Shown: one piece after another, positions 1 to 61,191 of the stretch
Numbering within the stretch: position 1 is the first letter of the stretch
Layout: each line of letters begins with the position of its first letter
From: a virus
Lineage: Duplodnaviria; Caudoviricetes
Strand: one strand, 5' to 3'
Length of the DNA: 64,000 nt
Virus record (IMG/VR): IMGVR_UViG_3300008954_000001
Notes under the pieces: model-generated
Database searches by the model: none
The model's input: only the letters and a program-made list of their open reading frames with translations
What the model was told of the DNA's origin: nothing
Made by a program: the position numbers and the translations under genes

Positions 1-3000
1 CATACAGGTGTGGTGAGGTTTTGTGTTTTGCCAGAACCCGACCTTCAATAGAACATTCAATGGCTTGGTTACCTTTGGTGACTGAGCCGAAAGAAACAAT
101 GTCTCCGAACGCAATATCGCTCCAAACGGTTTCCGGTAACTGCCACTCGCTTCTATCAACGGGTTTCGTTTCCAACAGAAAGGAAGTGTGGCTTATGGGG
201 TATGGGTCGAACAAAGCCCGACCGAAAGAGTTCTCGTTGAACTCCTCTACACCAAAGGTCATATAGATATTGGTGATCCCAGCATCTTTACCGTGCCGAC
301 CTTCGGGGAGAATTTCTGGCCTATCCCAAGGCCAAGACCAACGTCCGGCCCAACCTGAAGCGGGGTGGTCATACGCAATACCACCCGTCCTACCGAGAAA
401 GTTTGCTTCGCCAACAGTTGTGGCGTTCGGGTCTGTGAAGGGCCTTTGGGTTTTACTTACCCCTCCAACAACATGAACATCAAGCCCAAGCCCTACGGCC
501 CCCATCAAGGATTGATCGTTAAACCAATCGGACATGCCTCCAGTTGGGAACTTGACATCAAATAAGTAGCCCTTGCCACTTCTTCTAAAGCTGGTGATGG
601 GGAAAGAGCCTGCATATCGCCCTAAGGGGCGGGTGCCGCTTCGTTCAAAACCAAGTTCTTGAACATTCCCTCGCAAGGTAAGAGAGTGGTGATCCCACGA
701 CCCCGTGTTCACAGACGTGGGGTACTCTTCAGGTCCACTCACATAGGAGTTATCTCCATAGAACAATCCACAGCGGGACTTCCCTGACTGGTGCTCAAAT
801 GTCCCACCGAGGAAATGAACTAAACTCTCTCTCTCTTTCCCGTCACTACTGGCTGGCCGCACTTCCAACAATACGTTGTGAAAGGGAGCGGCTTTCCGAT
901 GAAGCTCACTTGCGTTACTGGCATTCATGCCACCCAACTCGCTCTCAATATTGAGAGCGACCCCTCGGCCACCGCACAAGAGAGCAACTTGGTCTCCCGC
1001 TTCTGCGGGGTGTCGATGATCGTTTCGAGCCGTGAAGATCAACTGGTGTTCGTACTTAACCGCATCTAAGGTAAGAGGTCCGGCGGTAGTCGTAACCGTC
1101 GTAGTGTTCTGCAACTCAGGGTTTTCAGATGGGGTCAGGATATCCTGAAGGAAGTTAGCTTTACCCAACGCAACTAATGTAGAGGGGTTCTGAGAAGTCG
1201 CTACGTCGGAGTACAGTCCCGTCTTATTGAGGTAATCGGCTAACTCAATTGGATTGGTGCAAGTAACTGGGTGGACGGGTTTTGGGATCACCATCTCATA
1301 GTGAATCCAAGCCGTAGGTGTTCTTGGGTCTGCTGATCGTAGGTCGATCAGAAATCTCAATGCTGTCTTGATCTCAACTGGAAATTCAAGTTTAGATACC
1401 AAGTAAGGAGTTTCGGGGAGGGCTTGAATTTGCCGCCCCGTGGCCGTCAGTACCTTTTGCTTGTGAACAGGATCTGAGTCAAAATCTACAACATTCCGAT
1501 TGGCACCCGTTAGAGTCCGTAAACCATAGCGTCCAGCAGGGGTTCCTGTGTTCAGGTGGTCAGAAATATCTTTCCAAGTAAGCACCCCATCAGAAGTGGC
1601 GGTAGCCCACCAAAGCGGATTTGATGCCGCTTCCGCCCTACGCTTATCGGTGGACCCGATGGTAACCATGTCTCGTTTGAGGGCATACCCAAAACGCTGA
1701 CCCTTTGCCGGGATGTTTTGGGTAATGACAACAGAGCTAACTGTGGCACCCTCAACAACCGCCGATAAAAGATTCGCTATACCGTCTTGTTCGTGGGACT
1801 CGAAAAGCTCAAGAGCGTTCCAATCTCCGGTATTGGTATTCCGAAGGGCGATTGAAAAACCATTAGGAACAGGAGAGCCTACTTTTGGTTGGACTCCAAT
1901 ATCCTCGATCAGACCAGCGACCCGTCGCCATTGAACACCAGATGCGGGAGAGGACTCCCAATTGGTGTACATACGACCACGAGAGACTTCGATTCCGATC
2001 TCATGTGTTTGATCGGGGGCTGGCAGGTGGCCAGAAGGCATCCATGGAGGATCGTCAGTTGACCATCGTTGCGTTTTAGCGTCGAAATGGAACCGAGAGA
2101 TTTCTGATGTTTTCCCGTCTCCGAGGTCTCCAAGAGGGAAGAAGGCTCGCAACTCTTCGGCGGGACCAGCCACCGCTGTCGGCATGACCGTCATCGAGCC
2201 GTCGAAATTGTAGGTCACATTTCCGTAAGCTAATCGGACAACATCCGTGCGAGCACTGCTACCGTAAGTCGTATCAAAACGATGATCTAAATCCCCACGG
2301 TGCCTGAAAAAAACACCCGTATCTTGATTAAGAGTGATCGTGTTTGGCCCTATCGTTGAGAAAGGCCCTACTCCAACTTGGAAGTAGATTTGTCTGAAGG
2401 AGATTTCCTCTGGACCCCATTTGATCCCGTCGTAATAGATATGGAGATCCGACAAAGGATGGTGATCTTGCGTATCCAAATAGGGAAGACCAGAAGGCTG
2501 CATCGCAAGGGTGAGGTGACCCGTTTCTGGGAAACTCCCTACTTCAAAGGAGCCTCGAAGTACCGTTAAGGTATCCCCCCAACTGTAATCCTTTACCTTG
2601 GGAAGATGCCGCAACATCTTTTTGCTTGAGAAGACATCTCGTTGAGTGGGGTTTGGGTAACCCAAATTTGCCGAATGTAGATCCCCGCCCGTCATTCGGA
2701 CAGAGGAACCTCGTTGGCCGCCTTCCATAGAGTAAGGCACAAAAGCAGCCCATAAGAGAGGCCGCCCCGCCTTATCCAAAGCAATGTCTCCGCCCGGTTT
2801 AGGGGTGTGGGAGAACTTCACGACACCCGAAGCGTAATCAATGTCTACATATTGGGTTTCGTCTAAATCGGGATCGAGAATCAACTCACGGGAAGCTAAT
2901 GGCCTCTCATAGTCTGGTCGTTCAGCTTTGCTTTTATCCGAAGGGAAAAGAACCATTCGGAAACCGAGGTCCAAAAGACTCCCAGGATCAGTGTACTTTT

Positions 3001-4540
3001 GTGTGTTCGGGATCGCTCGATCTGCTCGTGCAGAAGAGCCTCCGCCGGGAACATCGTTTGTCCCATGCACCTTTAAGGAACGGCCAACTTCTTTCGGGTC
3101 GATCAAACCCGTCAAACGAGCCGAATCTAACGCATCGGCATCAAAGTTAACCCCTGGCCCGTGAAGAGAATCAATCCCATCGTGGGCGGTACAATGGAGT
3201 TCGCCAACACCCGGCCCCTGAGTACGTAACTCGTGGTCAGGGTTCGCCAAAAAGAAGGGAACCCCTGTTTCAGGGTCTACGGTGTTGTGGTGTCGCAGTT
3301 CTACAAAGTATCCCTTTGACTTCGTTCGACCAATCTTGACTGCTTCAAAATAGCCGAGAGCACGTTTCGCCGTTGGGCAAACGGCAGGTAGACCTTCTTT
3401 GTCGAGATTGACTTCCGAAATGTGGATAATCGTAGTTTTCGGGTCTCCACCACCCAACCGCTTATCAAGCCACTCATAAACACCTTTCTTGACTCCGATG
3501 CGGAACCGTCCAGGTGGTGAAATCCCTAAGAAGTTCACATGAAGCGGAGCTTCGTGACTCAAGATCGCTTTGAATGTGCCGTGATCTGAATCGTATTCGG
3601 GGTCGAGGCTGATTGCTACAGGTCGAGGAATCGGCAAAGCCACTCGGCCCATGTAGTCGGCGGTGTCCCCTTTCCAAGCCACACGGGGCATCCAAAGATC
3701 GTCCGAAGCGGCGGAAGTTGGGGGAGTGACGACAAAGGACCGATTGTTGGAACCTCTAACGGGAACCAGCCGTGCGGTCTTCGCTTTTAATATGGTGATA
3801 GCTTTGAAAAAGCGTTTGTTGGAAGTGCTGGTCGTCTCGAAATACTCGTCGAGAGTCTTCGGGCCTTCCAAATCAATAATAGTGTTGTCTCGGATACTTT
3901 TGATACGAAACAACTCGTATCGAGCCGTACCGAGATGCTTTTCGGTCTCTACATGCCCTCTCTCTGGAAGGGTGGGGGGCTTGGAGACTTTCTTTGTAGT
4001 GGGGTCGTAAAGAGGACCGCCAGGATCGGTAACTACAATCCAATAAGGGTGGTTTTCCACATCGTCTGACTTAAGGCCATAAATGTTGCTAATTGCCGTG
4101 CTAAATTCCAAACGGCGGGGGCCAGTAACTGCCCACTGGTGTTGCGCCAACTCTGCGTTTTTAAGAGTTGGTCCATGCACCTCAAAGCTAACGGGGTGGC
4201 CTACAAGGGATAGCCCTAAATCCCCTTGGGCATTTGTGTTCCAAGCATACGGAACAAAGTTGATCTCTGGATAACCTCGCCGCCCCAAACGATTGTCAAA
4301 GCCGCTAATCGGTGCGGGAATATCAGCTTGGGTCGGTAATTTACCGTGTCCTAAGGTGTAGGATGCCGCCCAACTACCAGCGAAATCCTTTACTGCTTCT
4401 GCTGCTCGAATTGCTCTTGGAGGCACAGAGTCTTGACGACCAAACAATTCTTGCCAAGGCTGGCGTAATTGATCCGTGTCAGCGGCCTCTGCGAGCAACT
4501 TTCGCAAGCGATTTAATAGATCGTTCGTGCCCGTGGCCAT
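1..4540 (-). CDS. Large hypothetical virion/appendage protein, >1513 aa, 3' end beyond the window (not in the ORF track)
   Basis: Manual translation from ATG at 4540 (MATGTNDLLNRLRKLLAEAADTDQLRQPWQELFG...) stays open to base 2 (...GRVLAKHKTSPHLY). GGAG lies 8 nt upstream. Co-oriented with the tail operon. Contains YVDIDYASGVVKFS, similar to short motifs in other structural ORFs here. Confidence 0.85.
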   Translation of the reverse strand, partial: MATGTNDLLNRLRKLLAEAADTDQLRQPWQELFGRQDSVPPRAIRAAEAVKDFAGSWAASYTLGHGKLPTQADIPAPISGFDNRLGRRGYPEINFVPYAWNTNAQGDLGLSLVGHPVSFEVHGPTLKNAELAQHQWAVTGPRRLEFSTAISNIYGLKSDDVENHPYWIVVTDPGGPLYDPTTKKVSKPPTLPERGHVETEKHLGTARYELFRIKSIRDNTIIDLEGPKTLDEYFETTSTSNKRFFKAITILKAKTARLVPVRGSNNRSFVVTPPTSAASDDLWMPRVAWKGDTADYMGRVALPIPRPVAISLDPEYDSDHGTFKAILSHEAPLHVNFLGISPPGRFRIGVKKGVYEWLDKRLGGGDPKTTIIHISEVNLDKEGLPAVCPTAKRALGYFEAVKIGRTKSKGYFVELRHHNTVDPETGVPFFLANPDHELRTQGPGVGELHCTAHDGIDSLHGPGVNFDADALDSARLTGLIDPKEVGRSLKVHGTNDVPGGGSSARADRAIPNTQKYTDPGSLLDLGFRMVLFPSDKSKAERPDYERPLASRELILDPDLDETQYVDIDYASGVVKFSHTPKPGGDIALDKAGRPLLWAAFVPYSMEGGQRGSSVRMTGGDLHSANLGYPNPTQRDVFSSKKMLRHLPKVKDYSWGDTLTVLRGSFEVGSFPETGHLTLAMQPSGLPYLDTQDHHPLSDLHIYYDGIKWGPEEISFRQIYFQVGVGPFSTIGPNTITLNQDTGVFFRHRGDLDHRFDTTYGSSARTDVVRLAYGNVTYNFDGSMTVMPTAVAGPAEELRAFFPLGDLGDGKTSEISRFHFDAKTQRWSTDDPPWMPSGHLPAPDQTHEIGIEVSRGRMYTNWESSPASGVQWRRVAGLIEDIGVQPKVGSPVPNGFSIALRNTNTGDWNALELFESHEQDGIANLLSAVVEGATVSSVVITQNIPAKGQRFGYALKRDMVTIGSTDKRRAEAASNPLWWATATSDGVLTWKDISDHLNTGTPAGRYGLRTLTGANRNVVDFDSDPVHKQKVLTATGRQIQALPETPYLVSKLEFPVEIKTALRFLIDLRSADPRTPTAWIHYEMVIPKPVHPVTCTNPIELADYLNKTGLYSDVATSQNPSTLVALGKANFLQDILTPSENPELQNTTTVTTTAGPLTLDAVKYEHQLIFTARNDHRHPAEAGDQVALLCGGRGVALNIESELGGMNASNASELHRKAAPFHNVLLEVRPASSDGKERESLVHFLGGTFEHQSGKSRCGLFYGDNSYVSGPEEYPTSVNTGSWDHHSLTLRGNVQELGFERSGTRPLGRYAGSFPITSFRRSGKGYLFDVKFPTGGMSDWFNDQSLMGAVGLGLDVHVVGGVSKTQRPFTDPNATTVGEANFLGRTGGIAYDHPASGWAGRWSWPWDRPEILPEGRHGKDAGITNIYMTFGVEEFNENSFGRALFDPYPISHTSFLLETKPVDRSEWQLPETVWSDIAFGDIVSFGSVTKGNQAIECSIEGRVLAKHKTSPHLY

Positions 4541-4591: not shown

Positions 4592-7500
4592 TTACTTCAC
4601 TCCCGCTACACGTATGCCGCACAAGCCTTGAAGATGTTGTGGGGGAGCGGTTGGCCCACCCATTTCAAAGTTCAGATATTTACCGCCACCTTGATACATG
4701 ATCACCTTCACCAAAATTACCGCCCCATTTAGACCCTCAAACAACTGCGCTGGGGGTCCGAGGTTGCACCTTACCGTGCATCTATTGATCCCCATCTTCG
4801 GCATCGGGGTCAGATCCTTTGTCTCTGGCCCGACAACCATACAACCAGCACCATCAGCAAAGGGGTCTTGCTTTGATGGGCCTTCACCATCTCTTCGCCC
4901 AATATCCATCCAAGAGGTCAAACCCGGAACCTTGATAAGAATCGCCAGTTCGGGGCTGCCCGGTTCTGGTGCCTCCCATTTGAACTGCTCAAGGTTCAGA
5001 CCACGAATTTCCAAATCTACTAAAGAAGCCCCGACCGCATCATGACCAAGACCGAAGGCCCGTACCCAACTCCGACCTATACTTATATGGTCAGCCATAT
5101 CCGCCGCCTCAATGCCGCTGTAATCACAAGCGGAATTTTGAGTCGGTAAGTAGTTCTTGGTGTAGTCGTGTTGGGGGTAGATCAAAATCCCGCTGGTTGG
5201 CGTAGGATCTGTCACACCAAACTTAATGAATGGGTTTCGATCTGGCCAACCTGCAACTTGAAGCTCAAGCCGTTGGGCCGCTTCAGTTAGGGGCACCGTA
5301 TGGGATTTGGATGTCAGCCAATGAATTGCGTCCCAAGCTGTACCGTGAACATCTTCAAGTCGAATAGGAACATGGAGGTTGGTAATTACGCCATGAGGGA
5401 GTCCTGGCCCACACAAAGTTTCAGTATCTTTTAGTCCTAACGGCAAGCTGCCATCAGGAGCTTTGAAATCGCTACGGTAGCGGTATGTTTCATCGAGAAA
5501 GAGTTCCTTAGGGTCTTTAGCCCCATGCCAAAGATCCTCATGGGTGGTGGGATCGGCAGGGGTGGAAAACCAGATGTCCGTTAGGTTGCTGTATCTTACG
5601 GGGTTGGGGCGATCCTTACTGTGATCTGACCCGTGCCAGAGCAAAGTGGCATCTTTAAGACCCTCACCGTAATTATAGATACGGATACCTAAATCAAAGA
5701 AATGGTCGTGATGGTTCATATGCCGACCATGATTAAGAGGGCGGCGAAAGAACGCTCGTAAAGAAGCATCTTGTGAAAACTTCGGGAGCGTGTCCCCATC
5801 AAAATACAGAGCGGGGTCGTCAATCTGTTCGAGCAACATTTGGGCTACCGTATCCTCAACGGGAACGGGAAAGGATGCGTTATCGGATAAGAGGTGTCCT
5901 GTACCGAAATGGATGCGACCTCTTCGGAAATTGATTTCTTGCTGAAACGCTTCGGCTGGCTCTCCTCCCCCTACCGTAGCAACAGTGGTATCCGCAGCGG
6001 GAGTGAACGCCGAAGTTCCCAAAAACGCAGGGAACATATTGCCCATGTATAAGGCATCCCCTGTGATAGCCGATTCGCCATACCCATCCTTACCGTCATG
6101 CGTCAGGAAAGAAGTCTCAAATAGGCCATATACGGGAGGTGTGGCATCGTGGTCTGGGGCCTTTAGAGTAACAACCAGCCCTTCAGCCCGTAAACCCGTC
6201 GTATAGTTTTGCTCATAGCCAGCAGACAGAGCGTACTCAATCCCGCTTACGGCCATCACCTCTCCGACCTCCCAAGAGACCTGCGCTATATCATGTTGTC
6301 CTTCCCCATCTACAATCGGAGGTACGGGGTGTTTACAGAACTCGCTGTCCTTATCTCCAAGGACATCCTCGTAAACATTGGATCGAAGCACATGGTAACA
6401 AGAGGAATGGACAGGATCGGTTGAAGCCCGAACCTTGTTCCACACAGATCCGAGATGGCTCCAATCAACCAGATTGGCACTATACATCTTGTCCTGCGTA
6501 GGCATTTCAAGATCCCGCACCATCTCCTCGAAGTAAGCCTCTTTCTTGAAGTGGATTAGGACATAGTGACCGCAATCTCGTGGGTCATATTCAAGGAGAG
6601 TGTCGTCAGGGAGAAGGAACTGGTGGCGGTAGCGAGCTACCTGATAGGTCCAGTAGTCTTTGGCAAAGGATCTAAAGTCCCCTGCGTGTTCAAGATCAGT
6701 ACCGGGATCGAGCGCAGCGATTGAGGGCTTCTCGTAAAACCGATAAAGCTCTTCGGGCGGAGTCCAAGGCAAGCCGTGGGGTTTGGTGTAATCAACTAAG
6801 TAAGGCAACCGATAACGGAAAAAGTTGCCCTTATGCCCACCACCACGAGCAATTTTAGAACCGCCAAGAATCGGGATGCCGTCAGGGATCAATTCGATGC
6901 CCGCATTAGGGTCTGTGCCAAGACGAACTTGACCAGCAGCCGGTGCTCCTTGGCTTCCGTCTCCATCAAAATCATAGAATTCGTTTGGAAGGTCGTTCCC
7001 GTGAAGATCCCTGCCCATATGGATCTCAAACAAGTTGTACTGACCTGTGGCCCGTCCGGGGAATGTAAAGGGGTCGTAGGAGTGGGGGGCGCAATCGCCT
7101 CCGTGCTCACCGAGCCAGAAAATACCACCCGGATACCCATCGCACTTATCAAGGATGCCTTGGCCAAGATTCAAAGCGGCCAAGACTCGAAGTTTGAAGT
7201 CTTCGGGGTGGTGAAGGTGTGCGAATTCCCCATTCGGCTCAAACCGAATCAGGGCAAGGGTTCCACGGTCGGCGGGGAACACAACTCCAGAAACGACAAC
7301 TTCCTTACCTCCCTCTGGCCCACTGGAAGGAATGATCTCGTGGGTCATGGAAAGGCGGTTGTTCTCGGAGTTTTCATCCTTTTCTCTAACAAAGGCTCCA
7401 GCGTGAGCCTTGCCAACACCGCCACCAAGATAGGAGCCGTCTTCTACATTGAAGATCGGGTCGGTGTAAGGGTCGTTGCCCTTGGGCAAGAACTCTGTCG

Positions 7501-7996
7501 CCCCTCTCGGAGATCGCCAGAAGTAAGGGTAGATTTCAAGGCCCGTATCGGGGTCAGGAATTGGATCTCCATCAGGCCCCGGAACTTGGTAGTCCAACCA
7601 ACACCAATCTCCAGAGAGAATGTGGTGGGATCGAAGGAACCAAGTGGCATCGTCGAGCTTTAGAATCCCCCAATCAGGGATACTTGTCGTTTGAAAATAA
7701 TGAAGGCTATGGCCCACAGTTGGGGGCCGGGGGGGTACGAGAGCAGCGAGTTCATCCAGCACACCCTCAACATTAGAGGCATCATAGATTTTGGGTACAT
7801 CATCGACTGAAACTGAAGATGCTGGATGAGCATCATGCTCATCGATAATATGCTGCACCATGCCAGCACCCGCACCACCAGCGGCGGGAGCACCTGGTTC
7901 ACCAGATCCCGGAATAAAGGCGTTAACCTCAACGCTGTCGGAGGCGGCCAATCCGTGTCCGACCTTAATCGTTGCTGGGTCTATCTTTCGTGGCAT
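4592..7996 (-). CDS. Putative tail appendage/fibre-associated structural protein, 1134 aa
   Basis: Long ORF starting 1 nt after the upstream stop. N-terminal HIIDEHDAHPASSVSV...ASNVEGVLDELA resembles phage fibre/spike trimer-anchor motifs. Function inferred from context. Confidence 0.6.
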   Translation of the reverse strand: MPRKIDPATIKVGHGLAASDSVEVNAFIPGSGEPGAPAAGGAGAGMVQHIIDEHDAHPASSVSVDDVPKIYDASNVEGVLDELAALVPPRPPTVGHSLHYFQTTSIPDWGILKLDDATWFLRSHHILSGDWCWLDYQVPGPDGDPIPDPDTGLEIYPYFWRSPRGATEFLPKGNDPYTDPIFNVEDGSYLGGGVGKAHAGAFVREKDENSENNRLSMTHEIIPSSGPEGGKEVVVSGVVFPADRGTLALIRFEPNGEFAHLHHPEDFKLRVLAALNLGQGILDKCDGYPGGIFWLGEHGGDCAPHSYDPFTFPGRATGQYNLFEIHMGRDLHGNDLPNEFYDFDGDGSQGAPAAGQVRLGTDPNAGIELIPDGIPILGGSKIARGGGHKGNFFRYRLPYLVDYTKPHGLPWTPPEELYRFYEKPSIAALDPGTDLEHAGDFRSFAKDYWTYQVARYRHQFLLPDDTLLEYDPRDCGHYVLIHFKKEAYFEEMVRDLEMPTQDKMYSANLVDWSHLGSVWNKVRASTDPVHSSCYHVLRSNVYEDVLGDKDSEFCKHPVPPIVDGEGQHDIAQVSWEVGEVMAVSGIEYALSAGYEQNYTTGLRAEGLVVTLKAPDHDATPPVYGLFETSFLTHDGKDGYGESAITGDALYMGNMFPAFLGTSAFTPAADTTVATVGGGEPAEAFQQEINFRRGRIHFGTGHLLSDNASFPVPVEDTVAQMLLEQIDDPALYFDGDTLPKFSQDASLRAFFRRPLNHGRHMNHHDHFFDLGIRIYNYGEGLKDATLLWHGSDHSKDRPNPVRYSNLTDIWFSTPADPTTHEDLWHGAKDPKELFLDETYRYRSDFKAPDGSLPLGLKDTETLCGPGLPHGVITNLHVPIRLEDVHGTAWDAIHWLTSKSHTVPLTEAAQRLELQVAGWPDRNPFIKFGVTDPTPTSGILIYPQHDYTKNYLPTQNSACDYSGIEAADMADHISIGRSWVRAFGLGHDAVGASLVDLEIRGLNLEQFKWEAPEPGSPELAILIKVPGLTSWMDIGRRDGEGPSKQDPFADGAGCMVVGPETKDLTPMPKMGINRCTVRCNLGPPAQLFEGLNGAVILVKVIMYQGGGKYLNFEMGGPTAPPQHLQGLCGIRVAGVK

Positions 7997-26320: not shown

Positions 26321-26348
26321 ACACTTCCTCTGTCTGACCATAGGAAGC

Positions 26349-42816: not shown

Positions 42817-43413
42817 TCAAGAAATCATGTTGCTTGGACTTGATCCCGCCGCCACAGCGGGAGCGGGAGTCACGGGGGAGATTGCACCTGTCCCAAACCC
42901 TAAGGCAAGGTTCAAAGCAATCCCATTTCCAATACCTGTTGCTAACATGGGTAACAATACCCCCTTCATACCCACGGCCTTGAATCCGCTCTGAATCGAC
43001 TTGATTAATTTAGGTGAATTAGACACCACCACCTTAGCAATATCGGCCCCACCTGAAACACCTGCAACCGACCCCCTGTAATATGCGCTTTGATTTATAG
43101 TGTTCGAGAACCCGATAGAGATCGCAGTCGCCATCTCCACCATCTTGACCCCCTTTAGGCCAGCAGCAAGGCAAGCCCCTATCACCACTGGCGGTGCCGG
43201 GGGGCAAATTACCTTACCGCTCGATATCATCCCCGCACCCGCTGGCCCTACTGGACAAACACCGACCAGCATCGCATTAGAGGTTTGGGCATTGATCCAG
43301 TTCTGAACCCCCATCCCAATCCCATTGGTCATCATCAACCAACCCGGAGCCGTGGACTTGAAACTGCTTGCTGAACGAATGTTTTGAGCAAGCGACACCC
43401 CAATAACAGGCAT
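42817..43413 (-). CDS. Small Gly/Ala-rich protein with three internal repeats, candidate spike-tip protein, about 198 aa
   Basis: ATG at 43413 has GGAGG RBS (the ORF-track start at 43491 overlaps the spike gene). Immediately downstream of the spike. Three repeats similar to LATGIGxG. Confidence 0.6.
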   Translation of the reverse strand: MPVIGVSLAQNIRSASSFKSTAPGWLMMTNGIGMGVQNWINAQTSNAMLVGVCPVGPAGAGMISSGKVICPPAPPVVIGACLAAGLKGVKMVEMATAISIGFSNTINQSAYYRGSVAGVSGGADIAKVVVSNSPKLIKSIQSGFKAVGMKGVLLPMLATGIGNGIALNLALGFGTGAISPVTPAPAVAAGSSPSNMIS

Positions 43414-52599: not shown

Positions 52600-53264
52600 T
52601 ATCCCGCCCCCCTCGAATAGTCATCAAAGCTGCCAGCAAGAGATTTGAATTCGTGTCGCTCACTCTCAACTGTAAAGGATGCCGAAATCGAAAACTCGTA
52701 TGGCTTTTCGGCTTCTTCTTGGACGGTGAAGTTACTGAACCACCCAAACCAGTGATGACCGTCAAAGGAACACTTGATCTTTCCACGGGTAATGATCGTT
52801 CCGTAAGCATCGTAAATCGCACCGTTACAATGGAACAAAGCCAAGAGGTCTAAGAACTTGTCATAGGCAATCGTCTGGCGGCGAGTACCCCCCGTGTCTA
52901 ACGCTTGCATACGGCTCGGTAAGCGGTCGTTGTGGAAGGTCGGCCCTGTGGTGTTGGAAAGACCCGAATAGAGCCTCATAAAGCCGCCTGTGGCCGCCTC
53001 GAAGCTAATCTCGGAAGGGATGTCACCCCAATGCTGTTCGACCCACCCACCCATCGTCTGGATGCGCTCAATGAGCTTCGTCATGCTGATGCTCATCGAC
53101 TTCGGGTTCACATGCAAAACAAGCCGCATCCCCTCAGGGAGCATACTGGTCACGCCATCGGGAGCGAGGATATCAAAGATAACAGGGCGGATGCCCTTAT
53201 CTGTGATCTCATCATATTCGTCGGTAAAAGCCGACTTGATGATCTGTTCGTACTCCCTCGCCAC
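52599..53264 (-). CDS. Tail tube initiator-like protein (T4 gp48/gp54 or CIS-tube-like), 221 aa, GTG start
   Basis: LVLHVNPKSMSISMTKLIERIQTMGGWVEQHWGDIPSEISFEAATG. Directly downstream of the tape measure gene. Confidence 0.75.
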   Translation of the reverse strand: MAREYEQIIKSAFTDEYDEITDKGIRPVIFDILAPDGVTSMLPEGMRLVLHVNPKSMSISMTKLIERIQTMGGWVEQHWGDIPSEISFEAATGGFMRLYSGLSNTTGPTFHNDRLPSRMQALDTGGTRRQTIAYDKFLDLLALFHCNGAIYDAYGTIITRGKIKCSFDGHHWFGWFSNFTVQEEAEKPYEFSISASFTVESERHEFKSLAGSFDDYSRGAG

Positions 53265-53277: not shown

Positions 53278-56200
53278 CTACGCTTTGAACTTCTTCATGG
53301 GGTGGCCGAAGTTGCCCTTACCAGCCCACGCTTTCTTAGACCCGCCCGGACCCGTCATCCGAGCACCCGCATAAACGGCTTGCTTCACCTTTTCGAGATC
53401 CATTTCTTGACAAACATAAACAAAGACACTGCCACCACCACCGACACCACCCGTCGCTTGATCGACAGCACCACCGGGCTTCATACCAATGAACTCATCC
53501 TTGGTGTTGATTGGGCGGATAACCCCGCCTTGTGACCCGCCTTGATAGATGAAGTCTTGTAGGGTGTTCATATCGACCCCAAGCGACTTAAAGTCTTTTA
53601 ACAAAAGGGCTTTTCGAGGGTCGTCGTTGTCCAACCGTTTGTACATTGAAGCAGGGCTGTCAGGGGTGTTGAGCGATCCAGCCTCACCCTTCGCCAAATT
53701 CTTAGCGGCATCGCCAGTGGGGTCAAGACCGAGGAAGGTCGCAGCGTTACGAGAGAGTTCGGACTTCTTTGCTTCGGCCTCTTCCGTCTTGCCCTCTGCC
53801 AGCAGCTTCTTGATCTCTTTACGGACCTTCTCGGCGTTCCTGGCGTATTTCCTAACCTTCTCCTGTTCATCTTTTGATTTTTTGATGTTGTCCCACGGGC
53901 CTCTTTGGTTAGCCGCCATCCAATCCTCAAACTTTTTCTGAGACATTTTGTCGGCCCCGACCTCCAAGGTCGCCTTCACGAAGTCTTTCTTCAAATCCTC
54001 AGTGGTGTAGTCGTCGCCATCCTCCTTTTGTCCTGCATAGCCAGCCGCTACCTGCTTTTCGAGCAGCTTGAACATATGGATAATGTCCCCACCGCCCTCG
54101 GCACCCCTAAAGCTCGTGTTCATGTCGTTGGAAAGATTGGCCTGAGCATAGCCAGAACCCCTGGCATCAGCCGTTTTGCCGTCCTTGTCTTTCTTACTTT
54201 GTTCAGCCGTTACATATCCAGTAGTGCTTTGGCCTCTGCGGTCCAGCTTACCGTCCGTAACTCCGGGGGAGTATGTGACAGCAATCGAGTCGGTCACCTT
54301 CTCCAAGTTCAACCCAAGGCCCTGCATCCAAATAGCCATTTCAGCCATTTCAGCGTTGATATCTTCGGCGCTTCGATTTGTTGCGTTACCTGCGGCATCT
54401 GAATTAAAGGTGGCATACGAAGCATCGCTGGGAGCAAGATGGGTTGTTGTTTGCCCGATGCTTGTTATCGCTTGCGGCTGGTGTGTCCTAAATGTGCCCG
54501 CAACCCCTCCCGACAAAGCCTGACCATGGGACGTAACTTCGTCATCCCTACCTCTGATGCGTAAAGTCCTTCTTGTATCGGTGTTCCTTAGGTTCTCTGA
54601 GGAAACGCCGATGCCACGGTGCTTATATGTTGACCCCTCTCCCGTGATAGATACACCAGATATGTTTGAGGGCGCATCGGAAGCTCCCGTCCAGGTCGTC
54701 CCAGCTTCCTTCCTCGACCGATTTGGGTCTTTGAAATCATGAAGCATCCGCCCTGTTACCACCTCAGGAGCATCTTCTTTCCATGCGTCTTGCCTCTGCT
54801 TGTTAGTAATGGCTCCGTGACCAGGAACATCGATGCCGTGAACATCCTGCGTATGGAACGAGCCATGGACAGCGTCCCCACTCATGGGGTTGTCGGGGCT
54901 GGAAAAACCGCCCGCCCGATCAGGGTCTTTGATCGTGAACGCTGTCATGTCCTGATCAGCATTTATCGATTGGGTAACCAAGTTGGCATTATGGATGTTC
55001 CGCCCTGTGGTCACCCTTGCAGCTTTGGACGTTGCAATTTGCTCCTCCGTGTACCCCATTTGTTCGGCTTCGGTTTTCCAGCCCTCTTGTCGGGCGAACC
55101 TTCTTGGAGCAGCCTGCTTGAGCATGTCCATAAACTCAGGGTTGGCTTGGGCTTCCTTCAGCATTCCCCGTGGTAAGCCACCATCCCCGTAGGACGCATA
55201 TGAGCCTTGCGTCCTGGAGATGAAACCAGAAGCGCCTGTACCCAAGTTAGCGTTCATATTAGGGGTGCCGTCTGCATTAAACGCATTGTTCGCCGCATAT
55301 TTAGCTCCCTGATATTTGATGTTCATGGTTTCCCGCTTGTCTTTCATCTCCTCAACTTCTTGTTTCATCGTCTGCGCTTTATTGAAGTCTTTTTCTTGAG
55401 CGGCTGCTTTCTCTTTTTTCCTGATCTCACGACTCAAAATTTGGATGTCACGGTTTGTTTTAGTAGCTACTTTTGAATACCTGCTTTGCGCTTCAAGGGT
55501 GGATTTGAACGAATTGTCCCCAACGATTGATGTGAGAATCCCCTGAACCACTTTGAAGATTTGGTTTAAGACCATTGTGATCCCAGCATTCAAGGCATCC
55601 GCTATTGAGAAGGTGTTGTCAGCAATCTCACGGGAAAGCTCCTTATCTTCACTGAAGTTAGCGACCTGTGTTTGATGCTCAACACGGGCACCCTGCGACT
55701 GGTAGTAGTCCTCAATGGAACCGACAACCCTTTCAACGCCGTTAGCATCCTTAGTGATCTGAACATTCCCTTTTGAGTCCAAGGTGGCTGCCAACATCTT
55801 TCCATTCATCCCAACGACCGCACCATACGCTTTCACCTGCGCTCGCTGACTCGCTGAAATCTCCTTCGCAGTCATATCTCTTTTGACACCATCTTTCTCA
55901 ACGGTGTAACCATTCTTCTCTACCTCCTTCGCCATGTCTTTCATCACTTCATAATTACCGTCAAAGGCTTGCGTTAGATTTCGCATCTGACGCAACTGTT
56001 CCCCTTGCATCCCTGTGGCACTTTCTAAAGCCGCCAATTGCAACGCACTTAATTCATGGATTTCTTTACCGGGGAACATGCCTTTCATTGAATCTCGAAG
56101 CATGTTGAGCTTCCCGCCCATATCCAACTGATCGAGATTCTTCGCCATATTAGTCAGCCCACCCTTAGAGGCTTCCGAAATATTAGCCAAAACCGTCAAA

Positions 56201-57825
56201 CGGTTTCGCATCCCGTCAGCCGCCGCCGCATCCCGTTTGGTGGCTTCCATGTGGAATTTAGCGAGCATCTTTTTCTGTTGGGTCGGACTCAAGTCCTTCA
56301 AGACCTTCACCAACTCTTTCTTATCCATTGTTCCTAAGGTCTTATCGCCCCCAGCAAGGCCAATGGACCCCATCGTTATGTCCCCAAATTTCTTATTCTT
56401 CGCCAAATCCTTAACGAAAGCGTCCGCTGTGTTTTCTGCGGATCTGGTAACAGTCGCTTTTGTTCGGCCTACTCCCGCCAGCTTGACACGCTTAAAGCGA
56501 GCCGTCATAGACTCATCTACGAAACCTTTAGATAGGGTACTAAGGAACTCCCCACCTGTTTTCTGACCAAGGATCTTCCCGATCCGCACCAACAAAGCGG
56601 AGGCTTCTTCGAGACGCACGTTGTACATGGACATGCCAGAAGTGGCTTGGATCACCATCGAAAAGAACCGCTTGGTTGAGAAACCAGATTCCATCGCAAA
56701 ACGGCCAATAGTGCTGAACTTTTCAGCTACGGTTTCCAAGGTGAGGCCCAACTCTTCAGATTGGGTAGCCATATTTTGAGCAACGGTGCTTGCGCTCTCA
56801 CCAATCATACGGCTGGTGTTGATAACCAACGACATCGCCTGCCCGTATCCAGTAAGAGCAGATTTGGCACTTGTCATATCATTGGTCATTTCACGAATGG
56901 TCGAACCATGTTCGTGAAGGGTTTTGATAACTTCAATGTTGTCTTTTGCAAGAGAACGTAACGAAAACTGCATGTTGATTGCAGCGTCTCGCATGGCATC
57001 GATGGAATCGGTCGCACTATCGAAGCCTTGTCCAAGCATATCCGCCCCACCAACGGTGGACAGCAAGGACTTGTTAAACTCCTTCATCTTCGAGTCGGCA
57101 GCCATAATCACAGCAACAATGCCCATGATCACGCCGACCACAGCCCCAATTGCGGCGGCTGCGGCCCCAAGACCCGCAACTACAGCCCCTAACATCCCGA
57201 CGACTGGACCCAGAAGGGCACCCACTTTGCCAAGCATTCCAGCGGCCTTACCCATCCCGGCCATGGCTTTACCACCGCCAGCCAGCTTCCCTAAAAAGCC
57301 ACCCTTTTTACCACCCTTGGCTTTCCCTTTGCCGCCAACCGCACCGGGGCCGCCCGATTTGCCCCCCATTTTATTGAGAAGGCCCAAATGCTTTTTGGCC
57401 ATGTTGTTGACTGCGGCCCAGGCTTTTTTGCGTTCCGTGAGAAGCATTTTCTCTTGCTTGAAAATATTGCGGATAGCAGACAGTCGGCTCTTGCCCTGCT
57501 TGTCATCTTGCTTCGCAGCCGAAGAACTCGACTTAGCTACCTCTGTAGCTACCTGTTGCTCAATCTTGATCCGCTTCGAGTGATAGTCGGCAAGCTGCCT
57601 GTCTAACTTTGAAGTATCTACCGTGAGTTCTTGTGTCAGGGCCTTCTTAAGGGTCTCCCCGATCTGTTTTGAGGCAACATCAGCATTTCGCCGCATGGCA
57701 TCAAAACTAACCGCCCCAAGACCTTTTTCGATCTCAGTTTGCAAAGCCTTGCTTGCTTGCTCAACGCTTTTTGCGTTGAGCATAAATGCAAGTTCAAGTT
57801 GTTCAACTTTGCCGCCGCCAGCCAT
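53278..57825 (-). CDS. Tail tape measure protein, 1515 aa
   Basis: Ala/Gly/Lys/Met-rich helical sequence with a hydrophobic segment (LLGPVVGMLGAVVAGLGAAAAAIGAVVGVIMGIVAVIM). C-terminal DEFIGMKPGG...GGGSVFVYV. Position after tube and chaperones. Confidence 0.9.
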   Translation of the reverse strand: MAGGGKVEQLELAFMLNAKSVEQASKALQTEIEKGLGAVSFDAMRRNADVASKQIGETLKKALTQELTVDTSKLDRQLADYHSKRIKIEQQVATEVAKSSSSAAKQDDKQGKSRLSAIRNIFKQEKMLLTERKKAWAAVNNMAKKHLGLLNKMGGKSGGPGAVGGKGKAKGGKKGGFLGKLAGGGKAMAGMGKAAGMLGKVGALLGPVVGMLGAVVAGLGAAAAAIGAVVGVIMGIVAVIMAADSKMKEFNKSLLSTVGGADMLGQGFDSATDSIDAMRDAAINMQFSLRSLAKDNIEVIKTLHEHGSTIREMTNDMTSAKSALTGYGQAMSLVINTSRMIGESASTVAQNMATQSEELGLTLETVAEKFSTIGRFAMESGFSTKRFFSMVIQATSGMSMYNVRLEEASALLVRIGKILGQKTGGEFLSTLSKGFVDESMTARFKRVKLAGVGRTKATVTRSAENTADAFVKDLAKNKKFGDITMGSIGLAGGDKTLGTMDKKELVKVLKDLSPTQQKKMLAKFHMEATKRDAAAADGMRNRLTVLANISEASKGGLTNMAKNLDQLDMGGKLNMLRDSMKGMFPGKEIHELSALQLAALESATGMQGEQLRQMRNLTQAFDGNYEVMKDMAKEVEKNGYTVEKDGVKRDMTAKEISASQRAQVKAYGAVVGMNGKMLAATLDSKGNVQITKDANGVERVVGSIEDYYQSQGARVEHQTQVANFSEDKELSREIADNTFSIADALNAGITMVLNQIFKVVQGILTSIVGDNSFKSTLEAQSRYSKVATKTNRDIQILSREIRKKEKAAAQEKDFNKAQTMKQEVEEMKDKRETMNIKYQGAKYAANNAFNADGTPNMNANLGTGASGFISRTQGSYASYGDGGLPRGMLKEAQANPEFMDMLKQAAPRRFARQEGWKTEAEQMGYTEEQIATSKAARVTTGRNIHNANLVTQSINADQDMTAFTIKDPDRAGGFSSPDNPMSGDAVHGSFHTQDVHGIDVPGHGAITNKQRQDAWKEDAPEVVTGRMLHDFKDPNRSRKEAGTTWTGASDAPSNISGVSITGEGSTYKHRGIGVSSENLRNTDTRRTLRIRGRDDEVTSHGQALSGGVAGTFRTHQPQAITSIGQTTTHLAPSDASYATFNSDAAGNATNRSAEDINAEMAEMAIWMQGLGLNLEKVTDSIAVTYSPGVTDGKLDRRGQSTTGYVTAEQSKKDKDGKTADARGSGYAQANLSNDMNTSFRGAEGGGDIIHMFKLLEKQVAAGYAGQKEDGDDYTTEDLKKDFVKATLEVGADKMSQKKFEDWMAANQRGPWDNIKKSKDEQEKVRKYARNAEKVRKEIKKLLAEGKTEEAEAKKSELSRNAATFLGLDPTGDAAKNLAKGEAGSLNTPDSPASMYKRLDNDDPRKALLLKDFKSLGVDMNTLQDFIYQGGSQGGVIRPINTKDEFIGMKPGGAVDQATGGVGGGGSVFVYVCQEMDLEKVKQAVYAGARMTGPGGSKKAWAGKGNFGHPMKKFKA

Positions 57826-57827: not shown

Positions 57828-59090
57828 TCAGTCGCCTCCACTATAACGAGGCAATCGAGAGGTTATTTTATCTTGAAGGTTGCGGTCATCTTTTTTGGGT
57901 TTCGGGATCTCTTTTCGAGCAACTAACTTGCCGTCCTCTTCAACTAAAGCTCCCGCATCCTTTTCCGAATCTACCCACTTATCAAAGGCGGCCTGCTTCC
58001 GAGATGTGGGATATGAAACCGTCCGTGCTCCAGGCCGATCAGCATCAAAGCCCCCTTCTTGCATCATTTGAGCTACTTGATCCCCTGTGTACCCAACCAA
58101 ACGGGTTCGAGGACGGGTGCCAAGATTCTCTTCTCGTTCTCGGATTTCCTGTTGGGCTTCGGCCATCGCTTGATCTCGTGCCGAACGCTCTTGGAGCATC
58201 CTTTCTTTGATCTGATCTTTGTATTCAGCAACCACCTTATCGTGAAAGTCCATATCCCCAGTGACCCAACGGCGCATTTCATCGGCCAACTCATCAGAGG
58301 TGTACGCCATGCTGACCTGATCTCCCACATAAGGGTCTACAACAGATCCGTCTTTCGTGATCAGTTTGCCGTCTTCATCCAAAACACCCGTTGCTTTGTA
58401 GTACCACTCGTCCGATTTCTTGGCCCGATCTTGAAGACGAAGCTCTTCCTTTTGCTTCTCTTGCTTATTCATCCTCTCAACAGCTTTTGGAGCATGGGGG
58501 GCAATCGTTTGTTTCGTCAGCGTCCAATTAAATTCATCCCGTATTCGCTGGTCCTCTGCGTAATTCCACGCTAACCAAACCTTTTGGGAAGCGTTCAAAC
58601 CCAACCCTTCAAGCCCCGTCATACCTGTTAAGGTATCTAAATTGGGCGGGCCACTTCCCAGACCTCTCCAAAGGTCACGAGAGCGATCCTCAAACAAAAA
58701 ATAAAGGATGTTTTCTTGCGCTTTCGACATCCGCCGAATCAATCCCAAAACACAATAAAAGAGAGCGTCGAAGGCCCCCCTCGGTAATGAGTTCAACACC
58801 TCTCGAAACATCAGCTCTTTGCCAGGGGTGTTGAAATAAGGGAAGCCATCAATCAACCAAACCAGCCGAGCAACCATCGCAATAGACCAATTTCGTTGGG
58901 CGACCGCATCCTTCTGCACAGAAAACGCATTTTCTAAAAGGAAGTAATCTGACGGAAAAGGGCTGCGGATATTAAAAGTGAGATCGCCTACGGTAATTCT
59001 TTCGGAAAGAAACCCCGGCGTAATCAACGATTCGGTGTCTTCTAATAGCTCTAAACGCTGCTCCTGTGTTGTGGGAGGGAGCCGAGCCAT
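57828..59090 (-). CDS. Tail assembly chaperone-like protein 2 (G-like domain plus T-like region), 420 aa
   Basis: Immediately upstream of the tape measure gene. N-terminal 130 aa alignable by eye with the upstream chaperone. Charged helical C-terminus. Confidence 0.6.
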   Translation of the reverse strand: MARLPPTTQEQRLELLEDTESLITPGFLSERITVGDLTFNIRSPFPSDYFLLENAFSVQKDAVAQRNWSIAMVARLVWLIDGFPYFNTPGKELMFREVLNSLPRGAFDALFYCVLGLIRRMSKAQENILYFLFEDRSRDLWRGLGSGPPNLDTLTGMTGLEGLGLNASQKVWLAWNYAEDQRIRDEFNWTLTKQTIAPHAPKAVERMNKQEKQKEELRLQDRAKKSDEWYYKATGVLDEDGKLITKDGSVVDPYVGDQVSMAYTSDELADEMRRWVTGDMDFHDKVVAEYKDQIKERMLQERSARDQAMAEAQQEIREREENLGTRPRTRLVGYTGDQVAQMMQEGGFDADRPGARTVSYPTSRKQAAFDKWVDSEKDAGALVEEDGKLVARKEIPKPKKDDRNLQDKITSRLPRYSGGD

Positions 59091-59093
59091 TGA

Positions 59094-60209
59094 TCACCGT
59101 TTCTTCGGTGGTGTAAACCTTGGGTTCGTCGAAGGCTCTGCTACCGAAGGCTCTGCTATCGAAGGCTCTGCTATCGAAGGCTCTGCTTCGGCAACTTCTT
59201 CGGCCACCGTTTTCGCTGCTACGTGAGGGGGGACTCGCCTTGACCGAAGCTCTTGGATGCGTCGAGTTTCTGCTGCCATTGCCGCTTCCATGGAATCCCC
59301 ATCGCTCTTATCCACCCAACCACCATCCGCCGCCGCACTGCTTACTGAACCCGTAGCTGAAACAATGGTTTCAGCTTCCGTAGGGGCTTCCTTCGAGGTT
59401 TGTGGTGATGGGGGTTCAGAGATCGGCGCTTGCTTTTCTACTGGTGTGGCCGAAGTGGGGATAGCTGAAACACGACCCCCATCGGTTGTTGGGGTCGCAT
59501 GGGAAACCGCATCGGTATCGGTTGCTGTATCGGTTGCTGTATCGGTTGCTGTGTCAGTTGCCGGGAGTGTTGCTGTACCCCACCGATTTGTTTGGGGTGT
59601 TAGTGAAGGGGTGGGGTCAGCTTCTTCACCAGTTATCGGAAGACCGTCTCCCGACAAGACCGCTGTTGTAGCTTTGGATACCTTCATGTCCTCCAAAGTT
59701 TGCAACCGCCCCAAGAGGCGTTGGATTTCCGTTTCAATATCTGGAGGATTAAACTCAACAGCCTTATCAGACTGTAGTTCACAGCGTTCCATTATCTCGT
59801 TGAACTTCCGAAAAACGGCTGTCAATAATGGGCGAGGCCATGTCTCCAACATTTGACGAACCGCCTCAGTTCGCTTGACCTTAACGGGCTGGCCGTTCGG
59901 GAGAGTTTCCCCGGTGGCTACGTAATCTTCATTACGAAGATCCAAACCATTGATCTCAACCAAAGAGTAAGAAAGACAACCCAACTTGAAACGGTTTAGA
60001 TACTCGACCGCCAAGGAATTGTCCTTTTCTTGATCCTCTTCGGGAGTAGCCAAGATTTTTGCTTGCGCCCACCTCTGAATTTCAAGCTCTTCCGCCGGAC
60101 AAAGCACACGCATTACAACAACAATACCATCAATTTCAAAGCGTTCTTCAACCTCACCAATCTGCTTGATTGGTTGAAGGGTAGCTTTAAGGGTGGCGAG
60201 ATCGAGCAT
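59094..60209 (-). CDS. Tail assembly chaperone-like protein 1 with low-complexity C-terminal half, 371 aa
   Basis: Between tube and tape measure. ERFEIDGIVVVMRVLCPAEE...LSYSLVEING...LETWPRPLLTAVFRKF is a chaperone-like pattern. RBS AAGGAG. Confidence 0.7.
   Translation of the reverse strand: MLDLATLKATLQPIKQIGEVEERFEIDGIVVVMRVLCPAEELEIQRWAQAKILATPEEDQEKDNSLAVEYLNRFKLGCLSYSLVEINGLDLRNEDYVATGETLPNGQPVKVKRTEAVRQMLETWPRPLLTAVFRKFNEIMERCELQSDKAVEFNPPDIETEIQRLLGRLQTLEDMKVSKATTAVLSGDGLPITGEEADPTPSLTPQTNRWGTATLPATDTATDTATDTATDTDAVSHATPTTDGGRVSAIPTSATPVEKQAPISEPPSPQTSKEAPTEAETIVSATGSVSSAAADGGWVDKSDGDSMEAAMAAETRRIQELRSRRVPPHVAAKTVAEEVAEAEPSIAEPSIAEPSVAEPSTNPRFTPPKKR
59131..59190. repeat. Tandem repeat, 4 x 15 bp (GAAGGCTCTGCTAYC; last copy degenerate), encoding AEPS[I/V]
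   Basis: Units at 59131, 59146, 59161 and 59176, read directly. Confidence 0.95.
59515..59562. repeat. Tandem repeat, 3 perfect plus 1 degenerate 12-bp units (GTATCGGTTGCT), encoding ATDT
   Basis: Units at 59515, 59527, 59539 and 59551, read directly. Confidence 0.95.
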
Positions 60210-60279: not shown

Positions 60280-61191
60280 TTATCCGAGCGTGGAGATATC
60301 GCCTTCAAGACCCGTTGTGCCACCAGCGTCCACCATGCTTCCACCCCGAATCGGCGTAGAGCCAAACCGAACAGAACCAAGCTGACCGAGAGTTGGGTCA
60401 TTACCAGTAGCAAGAAACTCACCGTAGTAGCTGGAGAAATCATGGACATCAGAAACGATTACCGACCCTGTTTCCATGATCATGCCAGCATCCTTAGCGA
60501 AGGATGCGCTCCATGCCGTAAACCAACAGGCTTCGTACATGGTGATGATGGCCGAATGGCCTCGGTCATTAGTATTTCCAGCATTTGACGCTGGTGCCGC
60601 ACTGTCGGGGTTCGGGGTTTCGGTTGTTCCTGAAGCGGTCGTCCCTGAAGCGTATCCGCCCGCCGCCTTGCCGTCTTGGGTAACTTGTCCGTAGGCTGTT
60701 TGCTTGACACCGCCGTCAAAATCGCCCGATGCGCCACTCGCACCTGAGTTTGCTTCCGCCAGATCCCAATCCGCAAGCGTGGAGAACACAAGCTGCTGTT
60801 CAATGTCGAAGGGCCACCTGTGGTGTGCAAGAGATCGAACTGGACCGTCTACACCTGAAGCATAGCCAGTGGCTTGCCAAAGGTTGCAGAGATAAAGCAA
60901 CGCCCGCTCAAAGTCGCCTGTAGTAGGCTCCGTCACGGAAGGCACGAGTTCCGCCACCTGATCCCCGAAGCCGATACCACGAACAGGTTCAACCGTTCGA
61001 CTTTGACTTGGGTTAAAAGAGGACAAAACACCCATCTGATGTAGAGAAGTGTTTTCACCGTACACAGGAGTCAGAATACGCACTTTCTGCGAAACTGCCG
61101 TTCGAGTGTTTGGGGACGTACCGTAGTCATACAGGTACGAGGTGCCTTGTAGTCCTTTTTGTGGACTCTTATCTGTGTTCTTTGCGGTCAT
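60280..61191 (-). CDS. Tail tube protein (T4 gp19-like fold), 303 aa
   Basis: MGVLSSFNPSQSRTVEPVRGIGFGDQVAELVP...FERALLY, WPFDIEQQL and ITMYEACWFTAWSASF...IMETGSVIVSDV fit tube proteins. First gene before chaperones and tape measure. Confidence 0.8.
   Translation of the reverse strand: MTAKNTDKSPQKGLQGTSYLYDYGTSPNTRTAVSQKVRILTPVYGENTSLHQMGVLSSFNPSQSRTVEPVRGIGFGDQVAELVPSVTEPTTGDFERALLYLCNLWQATGYASGVDGPVRSLAHHRWPFDIEQQLVFSTLADWDLAEANSGASGASGDFDGGVKQTAYGQVTQDGKAAGGYASGTTASGTTETPNPDSAAPASNAGNTNDRGHSAIITMYEACWFTAWSASFAKDAGMIMETGSVIVSDVHDFSSYYGEFLATGNDPTLGQLGSVRFGSTPIRGGSMVDAGGTTGLEGDISTLG

Follow-up and report, generated by a model that had tools for sequence, protein, structure and literature searches.

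In phage Mu, the contractile tail is encoded by an 11.3-kb module in the order sheath, tube, chaperone, tape measure, gp43, hub gp44 and spike gp45, continued by the gp25-like gp46, the J-like gp47, gp48 and the fibre. Here we analyse a 64,000-nucleotide stretch of viral DNA (IMG/VR record IMGVR_UViG_3300008954_000001; hereafter the window), whose tail genes share the Mu order but occupy about 80 kb, counted from a tail-terminator-like gene to the end of the last gene of the run, g23. Genes g10 to g13 and most of g17 to g23 have no Mu counterpart.

The nearest cultured relative, itself distant, is Tunturiibacter phage Tunturi_5, a 308.7-kb jumbo myophage of Acidobacteriota with a 167-nm contractile tail visualized by electron microscopy (PMC11924767). 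The two differ in layout, as the Tunturi_5 tail genes are split over two distant loci and those of the window lie in one block. Tunturi_5 shares the tube (gp329, 37–44% identical), a multi-domain sheath (gp326, 30%), the J protein (gp241, 27–28%), g20 (gp222), a domain of g21 (gp247), the tail-terminator-like protein and the capsid protein (51%). In its two tail loci, tblastn at E ≤ 1e-3 detected no homologue of g02–g14, g16–g19, g22 or g23, and its large baseplate-adjacent proteins, annotated as RCC1-like, are unrelated.

Bacillus phage G (497.5 kb) has a module, gp178–gp190, that is colinear with the window. Weak matches link its sheath gp178 to the sheath gene described below, gp184 to g05, gp185 to g07, gp187 to g14, gp188 to g15 and gp190 to g20. 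From the sheath gene to gp190 this module measures about 25 kb, the bulk of which is a tape measure of 2893 amino acids (aa), whereas in the window the bulk is made up of baseplate and appendage genes. A search of the 41-kb tail locus of phage G detected no counterpart of g10–g13, g16–g19, g22 or g23. Among uncultured phages, the nearest GenBank record is LR745208.1 (485 kb, unannotated), on which our literature search found no paper; the ‘moraphage’ lineage (PMC12619734), which carries T4-like gp19, gp25 and gp6 viral orthologous groups, was not linked to this clade. We found no characterized phage that has the gene order of the window at these sizes.

A contractile-tail block in an uncultured huge phage

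Genes are numbered g01 to g23 in transcription order and lie on the minus strand, so that the tube-first order reads leftward from position 61191. We found 23 consecutive minus-strand open reading frames (ORFs) from 61191 down to base 2 of the window, with intergenic distances of −67 to +75 nucleotides (nt) and with 60,876 of 61,191 nt (99.5%) coding (Table 1). Starts supported by Shine–Dalgarno (SD) sequences (ATG 43413 for g09 and ATG 30308 for g11) remove both overlaps. Eight products exceed 1000 aa: g04 (1515 aa), g07 (1627 aa), g10 (4164 aa), g15 (1161 aa), g19 (1673 aa), g21 (1143 aa), g22 (1134 aa) and g23, which measures more than 1513 aa within the window and continues past its open left edge for about 8.5 kb on the source contig. 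These results confirm the description in an earlier note on this DNA, which had counted 23 co-oriented ORFs with gaps mostly under 80 nt, eight of them over 1000 aa, and an open left edge; the gaps are in fact at most 75 nt. The same note had put the block at more than 61 kb. This holds, but the extent is larger once the full g23 and the sheath side are included: the stretch that opens with the tail-terminator-like gene and closes with g23 measures 80.2 kb in contig coordinates. Counted from the capsid gene, the structural region up to and including g23 covers about 116 kb.

We conclude that the window very probably covers, from the tube to the appendages, the contractile-tail genes of an uncultured marine huge phage (contig of at least 281 kb). 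We have similarly high confidence that its gene order is of the Mu/P2 type, leading from the tube through g02/g03, the tape measure, g05/g06, the hub and the spike to g09. A clade-specific insertion (g10–g13) then follows, in all likelihood succeeded by the gp25-like g14, the J protein g15, g16 at the position of gpI, and the appendage candidates g17–g23. This assignment is anchored in the tube, sheath, gp25-like and J proteins, each identified by fold or family, in the synteny throughout the clade and in the presence of a capsid gene on the same contig. The conserved tail layout that the earlier note had proposed is strongly supported at the tube, gp25-like and J proteins and less strongly at the hub, spike and tape measure. 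A claimed paralogy of g02 and g03 was not seen: BLASTP of g02 against g03 shows no similarity.

The window is 99.99–100% identical to a marine-metagenome scaffold of 281,784 bp in ENA. Its genes are also found on a 244-kb JGI contig, and contigs with an identical giant gene reach 323 kb. The sequence is present in public marine metagenome runs, and no RNA run is listed among the public sequencing runs that contain it. Megablast of 25 kb of the window against the phage collection gave no match, and Pfam and PHROG scans of all window ORFs were mostly empty. A prophage reading was rejected, as the window contains no cellular genes.

Table 1. Tail-block genes of the window, the sheath gene and the adjoining helicase gene. 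Coordinates refer to the window unless a contig locus (L) is named; empty cells, nothing reported.
Feature	Assignment	Length (aa)	Coordinates	Strand	Basis
g01	Tail tube protein (predicted)	303	60280..61191	-	AlphaFold2 (AF2) model and Foldseek; neighbouring sheath gene
g02	Tail assembly chaperone position	371	59094..60209	-	Position only
g03	Tail assembly protein position	420	57828..59090	-	Position only
g04	Tape measure candidate	1515	53278..57825	-	Position, composition, PHROG matches in homologues
g05	Small baseplate-proximal protein	221	52599..53264	-	Conserved in relatives
g06	g05-like domain and C-terminal glycine zipper	623	50728..52599	-	Paralogy, synteny
g07	Baseplate hub candidate	1627	45833..50716	-	Conserved N-terminal ~640 aa and ~1000-aa extension
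g08	Central spike candidate	783	43425..45776	-	Look-alikes, homologue matches
g09	Gly/Ala/Ser-rich protein	198 (from ATG 43413)	42817..43413	-	SD-supported start
g10	Giant protein	4164 (gene-caller form 4089)	30310..42804	-	Homologues in relatives
g11	Leu/Glu/Lys-rich protein	102	30000..30308	-	SD-supported start
g12	Protein with N-terminal hydrophobic segments	897	27306..29999	-	Synteny in L004, L006, L008
g13	Protein encoded upstream of the gp25-like gene	311	26367..27302	-	Syntenic, 29–49% identical in relatives
g14	gp25-like sheath initiator / wedge subunit (predicted)	366	25241..26341	-	PHROG
g15	gp6/J-like baseplate wedge protein (predicted)	1161	21755..25240	-	Pfam, PHROG
g16	P2 gpI / Mu gp48 position	506	20235..21755	-	36–69% identical in relatives
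g17	Right-handed beta-helix protein, tailspike-like	638	18306..20222	-	Pfam Beta_helix
g18		338	17238..18254	-	ORF only
g19		1673	12167..17188	-	Homologues in relatives
g20	Conserved virion protein	215	11444..12091	-	phrog_5417, 4.5e-13
g21	Fibre-related protein	1143	7998..11429	-	Tunturi_5 similarity
g22		1134	4592..7996	-	LR745208.1 homologue, 32–36% identical
g23	First ~1513 residues of a giant protein	4345 (full)	1..4540, continues L017:13457 onward	-	Full gene on source contig
Sheath	Tail sheath protein	1639	L013:1309-6225, ~3.5–8.4 kb beyond window end, same contig		
Helicase	SNF2-family helicase, not a tail gene		61391..63556	+	SNF2-rel_dom 2e-29, Helicase_C 1.5e-13

Tube, sheath and wedge proteins

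We modelled g01 with AF2. An alignment of 25 close homologues gave a predicted local distance difference test (pLDDT) score of 36, and the model became usable only with a more diverse alignment (49 sequences from 50%-identity representatives), which raised the core to pLDDT 80–95. The best 50 Foldseek matches of this model in the PDB were all tail-tube or Hcp-fold proteins. The tube of Staphylococcus phage 812 ranked first (8q01, E = 1.4e-4, template-modelling score by target 0.71), followed by tubes of extracellular contractile injection systems (eCIS) and by lambda V. Sequence identity to the phage 812 tube is 11%, and that protein is shorter (about 140 versus 303 aa); unlike it, the g01 model has a low-confidence insertion at about residues 145–205 and disordered termini. 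The sequence signals, though weak, are in line with this fold, and one g01 homologue matches Pfam T4 gp19 (5e-4). Phmmer of g01 against the PDB found nothing, and the family profile found nothing significant there. The family comprises 1063 homologues, the best 120 of which are 64–96% identical and lie on contigs of up to 528 kb; in LR745208.1 the tube homologue directly adjoins the sheath gene. Together, the model and the neighbouring sheath gene provide strong support for a predicted tail-tube role of g01.

The sheath gene lies beyond the window end on the same contig. The C-terminal ~400 aa of its product match the phage G sheath (E = 2e-26), and the C terminus matches annotated sheaths of 221 phage records. 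The Tunturi_5 sheath matches residues 9–557 and 1179–1638, whereas other phage sheaths match the C-terminal part only. Since only the ends match other sheaths, roughly 600 or more residues must be inserted domains. A survey of sheath evolution reports 426–713 aa for type 2 sheaths (PMC9230969), far below the 1639 aa found here. Genes for a Zn-ribbon protein and for a 394-aa tail-terminator-like protein lie upstream of the sheath gene. The 394-aa protein shows weak similarity to phage G gp177 and to the Tunturi_5 ORF that carries a tail-terminator annotation.

Between tube and sheath lies a cassette on the opposite strand (61391–64000, +, continuing on L013:6307-9759). It consists of the SNF2-family helicase gene and the next gene, whose 438-aa product has an AcrVA2-like tag among its precomputed Pfam annotations. 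Past the cassette the tail genes resume with the sheath and tail-terminator-like genes. LR745208.1 differs in that sheath and tube are adjacent, with no cassette between them.

At the other end of the core module, the wedge genes gave the clearest matches to known families. We detected matches of g14 to phrog_975 (‘baseplate protein’, 1.4e-9) and phrog_43 (‘wedge subunit’, 2.6e-6), and a match to Pfam Sheath_initiator (7e-5) that scored 23.3 bits, below the 32.9-bit cut-off. The product of g15 matches Pfam Baseplate_J (7.4e-20, 71.8 bits against a cut-off of 21.1) and phrog_6 (1.8e-25), and its homologues include the wedge proteins Tunturi_5 gp241 and phage G gp188. By these family matches, the predicted identities of g14 as gp25-like and of g15 as gp6/J are both strongly supported.

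Tape measure, hub and spike candidates

The gene for the 1515-aa g04 product lies between tube-proximal and hub genes, where the colinear phage G module has its tape measure, gp183. Its composition is helix-prone and rich in Ala, Gly and Lys, with a hydrophobic Gly/Ala stretch at about residues 180–245. Although g04 itself matches no Pfam or PHROG family, three of its 16 homologues match PHROG tape-measure families (best 1.9e-5). Homologues are 968–1318 aa long, so that the relatives' tape measures are shorter than the one here. These data make g04 a probable, but not proven, tape measure. The two genes upstream of it, g02 and g03, occupy the chaperone position; their ‘chaperone’ label would follow from position only, and neither matches a family in the Pfam and PHROG scans. 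Both occur in relatives, g02 syntenic and conserved only in its N-terminal ~175 aa, and g03 conserved over its full length at 25–34% identity.

Two genes separate g04 from the hub candidate. The g05 product is 52–59% identical in relatives and is paralogous to residues 304–472 of g06 (27% identical, E = 6e-10), a similarity that points to a duplicated domain at the junction of tape measure and hub. The family profile of g05 gave nothing significant against the PDB, and hhalign found no link to the tube profile. The product of g06, which is syntenic in relatives, has Gly-zipper Pfam matches below the family cut-off. A ‘tube initiator’ label for g05 and g06 would be based on position only.

For g07 we found hub-like signals at several levels. 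The protein-atlas (language-model) look-alikes of residues 1–640 are Mu gp44/GpP hub families (score 0.96), with agreement among all ten of the best ten named. Three of 20 homologues match a PHROG ‘baseplate hub’ family (best 4.4e-5), and hhalign of the g07 family against phage G gp185, which has the same position, gave a probability of 88% and E = 2.7e-6. There was no direct Pfam hub match, phmmer and the family profile found none in the PDB, and hhalign against the tube profile found nothing. Most g07 homologues (loci L023–L058; window 48797–50716) have about 250 aa inserted in the N-terminal hub region. Some of these inserts are peptidoglycan hydrolases (Phage_lysozyme2 at 2e-10, Amidase_2, SLT, glucosaminidase), as expected for a tail-tip protein. 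Unlike these relatives, the window genome encodes the short form without the insert, and no lysin domain was detected in the block. We consider g07 a probable hub, not a proven one.

The protein-atlas look-alikes of g08 are the Gp5_OB and Phage_base_V families (score 0.94). Among 18 homologues, five match Phage_base_V and four DUF2345, all below the cut-offs, and the family profile matches the VgrG structure 6sjl at E = 0.029. A spike identity for g08 is likewise probable and not proven. In relatives g09 always directly follows g08; a spike-tip role for g09 would be a matter of position only.

Capsid gene and phage identity

About 43 kb past the window end, the ENA scaffold carries the major capsid gene (L149:21-422). 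The capsid sequence there, from the C-terminal part of a 289-aa product, shows 89% identity to the form found in the clade and 51% to the major head protein of Tunturi_5, and the capsid homologue of one relative has a weak Phage_capsid Pfam match. Contigs with the clade capsid (L062–L143) reach 528 kb; the protein is only about 290 aa long and 87–99% identical, a range that refers to the best 80 of 469 matching metagenome loci, from many different datasets. In relatives, the Terminase_6N and Terminase_6C Pfam models and a Tunturi_5 portal query found nothing, the head genes being too divergent for these queries. While the capsid remains 87–99% identical, identity in the tail proteins of these phages falls to 30–45%.

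Contractile tails are not confined to phages, and the block could in principle encode an eCIS, a tailocin or another headless particle from a cellular genome. All contractile systems have the same gene order, and the g01 model also matches the Anabaena, Algoriphagus, PVC and AFP tubes. Against this, relatives with the same block are phage genomes of 222–436 kb bounded by direct terminal repeats (DTRs), the cultured phage that comes nearest, Tunturi_5, is a myophage, the sheath resembles phage sheaths most closely, and the Afp15-like AAA+ ATPase was not found among the window ORFs by Pfam, which gave no AAA+ match in the 23 ORFs or in either flanking ORF. Most directly, because a capsid gene lies on the same contig, the tail belongs to a tailed phage and not to a headless particle; on this ground the eCIS or tailocin reading was rejected, and we regard it as extremely improbable. 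The search of the rest of the contig that the earlier note had proposed turned up both a sheath and a major capsid gene, and the note's judgement that a jumbo-phage tail is likelier than an eCIS is borne out by the capsid gene, the DTR-bounded relatives and the lack of an AAA+ match.

Conservation in an uncultured clade

LR745208.1 and the IMG/VR relatives (loci L004–L008 and L019–L058) encode homologues of g01–g07, g09, g10, g12–g16 and g19–g22 at 26–67% identity. They have the same order of sheath, tube and g02 to g07 as the window and proteins of similar size, with hubs of 1350–1885 aa, spikes of about 800 aa and giants of 3000–4134 aa. Strict synteny of g01–g10 with similar protein sizes was found at about 40 IMG/VR loci on contigs of up to 436 kb, and g10 and g12–g19 are syntenic in L004, L006 and L008. 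Direct terminal repeats bound three contigs of relatives (222, 402 and 436 kb). The capsid proteins of the 402-kb and 436-kb genomes and of LR745208.1 are 48–49% identical to that of Tunturi_5; no capsid gene was found on the 222-kb DTR contig.

The position of one gene pair differs. In LR745208.1, g10 and g12 are inverted and displaced (230607–241133, +), near a helicase-like gene. As the pair there lies apart from the gp25–J genes, it can evidently move as a unit. The homology and synteny indicate that the block architecture is a trait of a large uncultured lineage, public though uncharacterized, and not a one-off. The block is thus oversized, as had been claimed, but it is conserved across this clade and not unique to this genome.

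Giant and clade-specific proteins

The largest product, g10, has 21 clusters of homologues of 3000–4134 aa, none of which has a Pfam domain. Conservation extends over most of the protein, apart from a more variable region at about residues 2600–3400. We found no PDB match by phmmer or profile, and LR745208.1 is its only match among 50,697 phage records. In IMG/VR relatives g10 comes after g09 and before g12. The second giant, the product of g23 (P0121), has 25 clusters of homologues of 3400–5090 aa without a Pfam domain; its family profile has no PDB match, and a pattern search in IMG/VR gave no match. By hhalign, the g10 and g23 profiles are unrelated.

The product of g12 has hydrophobic windows at residues 23–60 and 847, and its C terminus has a weak PHROG tape-measure match (0.004). 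No family match was found for g11, g16 or g22 in Pfam and PHROG, or for g13. Among phage records LR745208.1 is the sole match of g16 and g19, and g19, which has no cultured-phage match, is identical over its full length at 57% in L004 and at 32% in L006 and L008. No family match and, in the relatives examined, no homologue was found for g18.

Several points weigh against assigning the entire run to the tail. Of the 23 proteins, only g15 and g17 pass the curated Pfam cut-off. The calls of hub, spike and tape measure combine sub-threshold matches of homologues, language-model look-alikes and gene position, and hhalign of the g05, g07 and g08 family profiles against the single Mu sequences gp43, gp44 and gp45 detected no similarity. 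The products of g02, g03, g05, g06, g09–g13, g16, g18, g19, g22 and g23 appear similar to nothing characterized, and it is co-orientation and synteny alone that suggest their membership in the tail. The tail of the clade, moreover, is described from sequence data.

An alternative is a mixed block, in which the core tail would be real but g10, g12, g19, g22 and g23 would encode virion or infection proteins of other kinds embedded in the late operon, such as proteins that are ejected or internal, enzymes that remodel the envelope, or decoration proteins. These five lack a family, PDB or cultured-phage match, g12 has membrane-like hydrophobic segments, and g10 and g23 are conserved nearly end to end, unlike typical receptor-binding fibres with their variable distal ends. 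The displacement of the g10 and g12 homologues in LR745208.1, on the opposite strand and away from the gp25–J genes, also means that physical coupling to the wedge genes is not required. In IMG/VR relatives, however, g10 lies between the spike-tip gene and the gp25–J genes, and the compositions, with much Gly, Asp, Pro and Thr and a beta propensity, resemble those of other structural appendage proteins. Passage of a 4000-residue protein through a tail tube is unlikely, and g17 and g21 in the same run show spike or fibre features. On balance we judge a mixed block to be unlikely, and we favour the assignment of the run to a contractile tail. A more specific proposal within the tail reading is that g10, g12, g16, g19, g22 and g23 are structural subunits of a baseplate or appendage architecture without a solved counterpart. 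We put this forward tentatively, as possible but rather doubtful; such an architecture might be, for example, a giant scaffold ring or a host-capture network of new folds. If this is true, few known contractile-tail baseplates would be as massive, and the lineage of huge phages that builds it would be a cosmopolitan one.

Fibre-like proteins and neighbouring genes

Seven genes, g17–g23, had been called fibres in the earlier note; similarity supports this for g17, through its beta-helix, and for g21, through a Tunturi_5 tail-fibre ORF, and for these two only. The Beta_helix match of g17 scores 26.3 bits, barely above the cut-off of 25.9. When g17 is compared with its counterpart in the closest relative, whose J protein is 65% identical (L004:8765-9853), the N-terminal 135 aa are 63% identical, the C terminus is related and the centre is unmatched, a pattern that suggests domain swapping in an exchangeable receptor-binding module. 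In g21, residues 291–501 are similar to Tunturi_5 gp247 (‘tail fiber protein’) and to phage G gp211, and the LR745208.1 homologue aligns with the full length of g21 at 40% identity. The g20 product falls in a conserved PHROG without an assigned function and has homologues in phage G (gp190) and in Tunturi_5 (gp222, annotated as ‘virion structural protein’).

Between the capsid and sheath genes (L146–L149) we observed late-strand genes for products of 2304, 448, 851 and 2175 aa. The 2304-aa product has a weak Big_2 tag and the 448-aa product a faint Peptidase_S74 tag. Peptidase_S74 is a tail-fibre chaperone domain. A peptide deformylase gene lies in the same interval of the contig.

Proposed mechanism and implications

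By analogy with T4, Mu and P2, the machine would work like any myophage tail. Hub, spike and tape measure would nucleate polymerization of the tube, and the tape measure would set its length, at about 1.5 Å per residue over 1515 aa predicting a tube of about 230 nm. The 1639-aa sheath would polymerize from the gp25-like initiator. Binding of the peripheral proteins to a receptor would then lead to rearrangement of the baseplate and contraction of the sheath, which would drive tube, hub and spike through the envelope. The core subunits themselves would carry extra mass (tube 303, gp25-like protein 366, J 1161, hub 1627 and sheath 1639 aa). This extra mass, comprising added domains and the giant proteins, most likely represents an enlarged baseplate periphery and adhesion apparatus.

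Standard profile libraries recognize only two of the 23 proteins, yet the clade is widespread. The map of tube, tape measure, hub, spike and wedge provides annotation anchors for hundreds of uncultured genomes, and the large sheath, the large hub and the two giants of about 4000 aa, which belong to no known family, are targets for structure prediction and, given a host, for cryo-electron microscopy. The block shows how far the blueprint of contractile injection can inflate, from 11 kb in Mu to about 80 kb here, and its enlarged tail parts bear on how huge phages recognize and penetrate their hosts.

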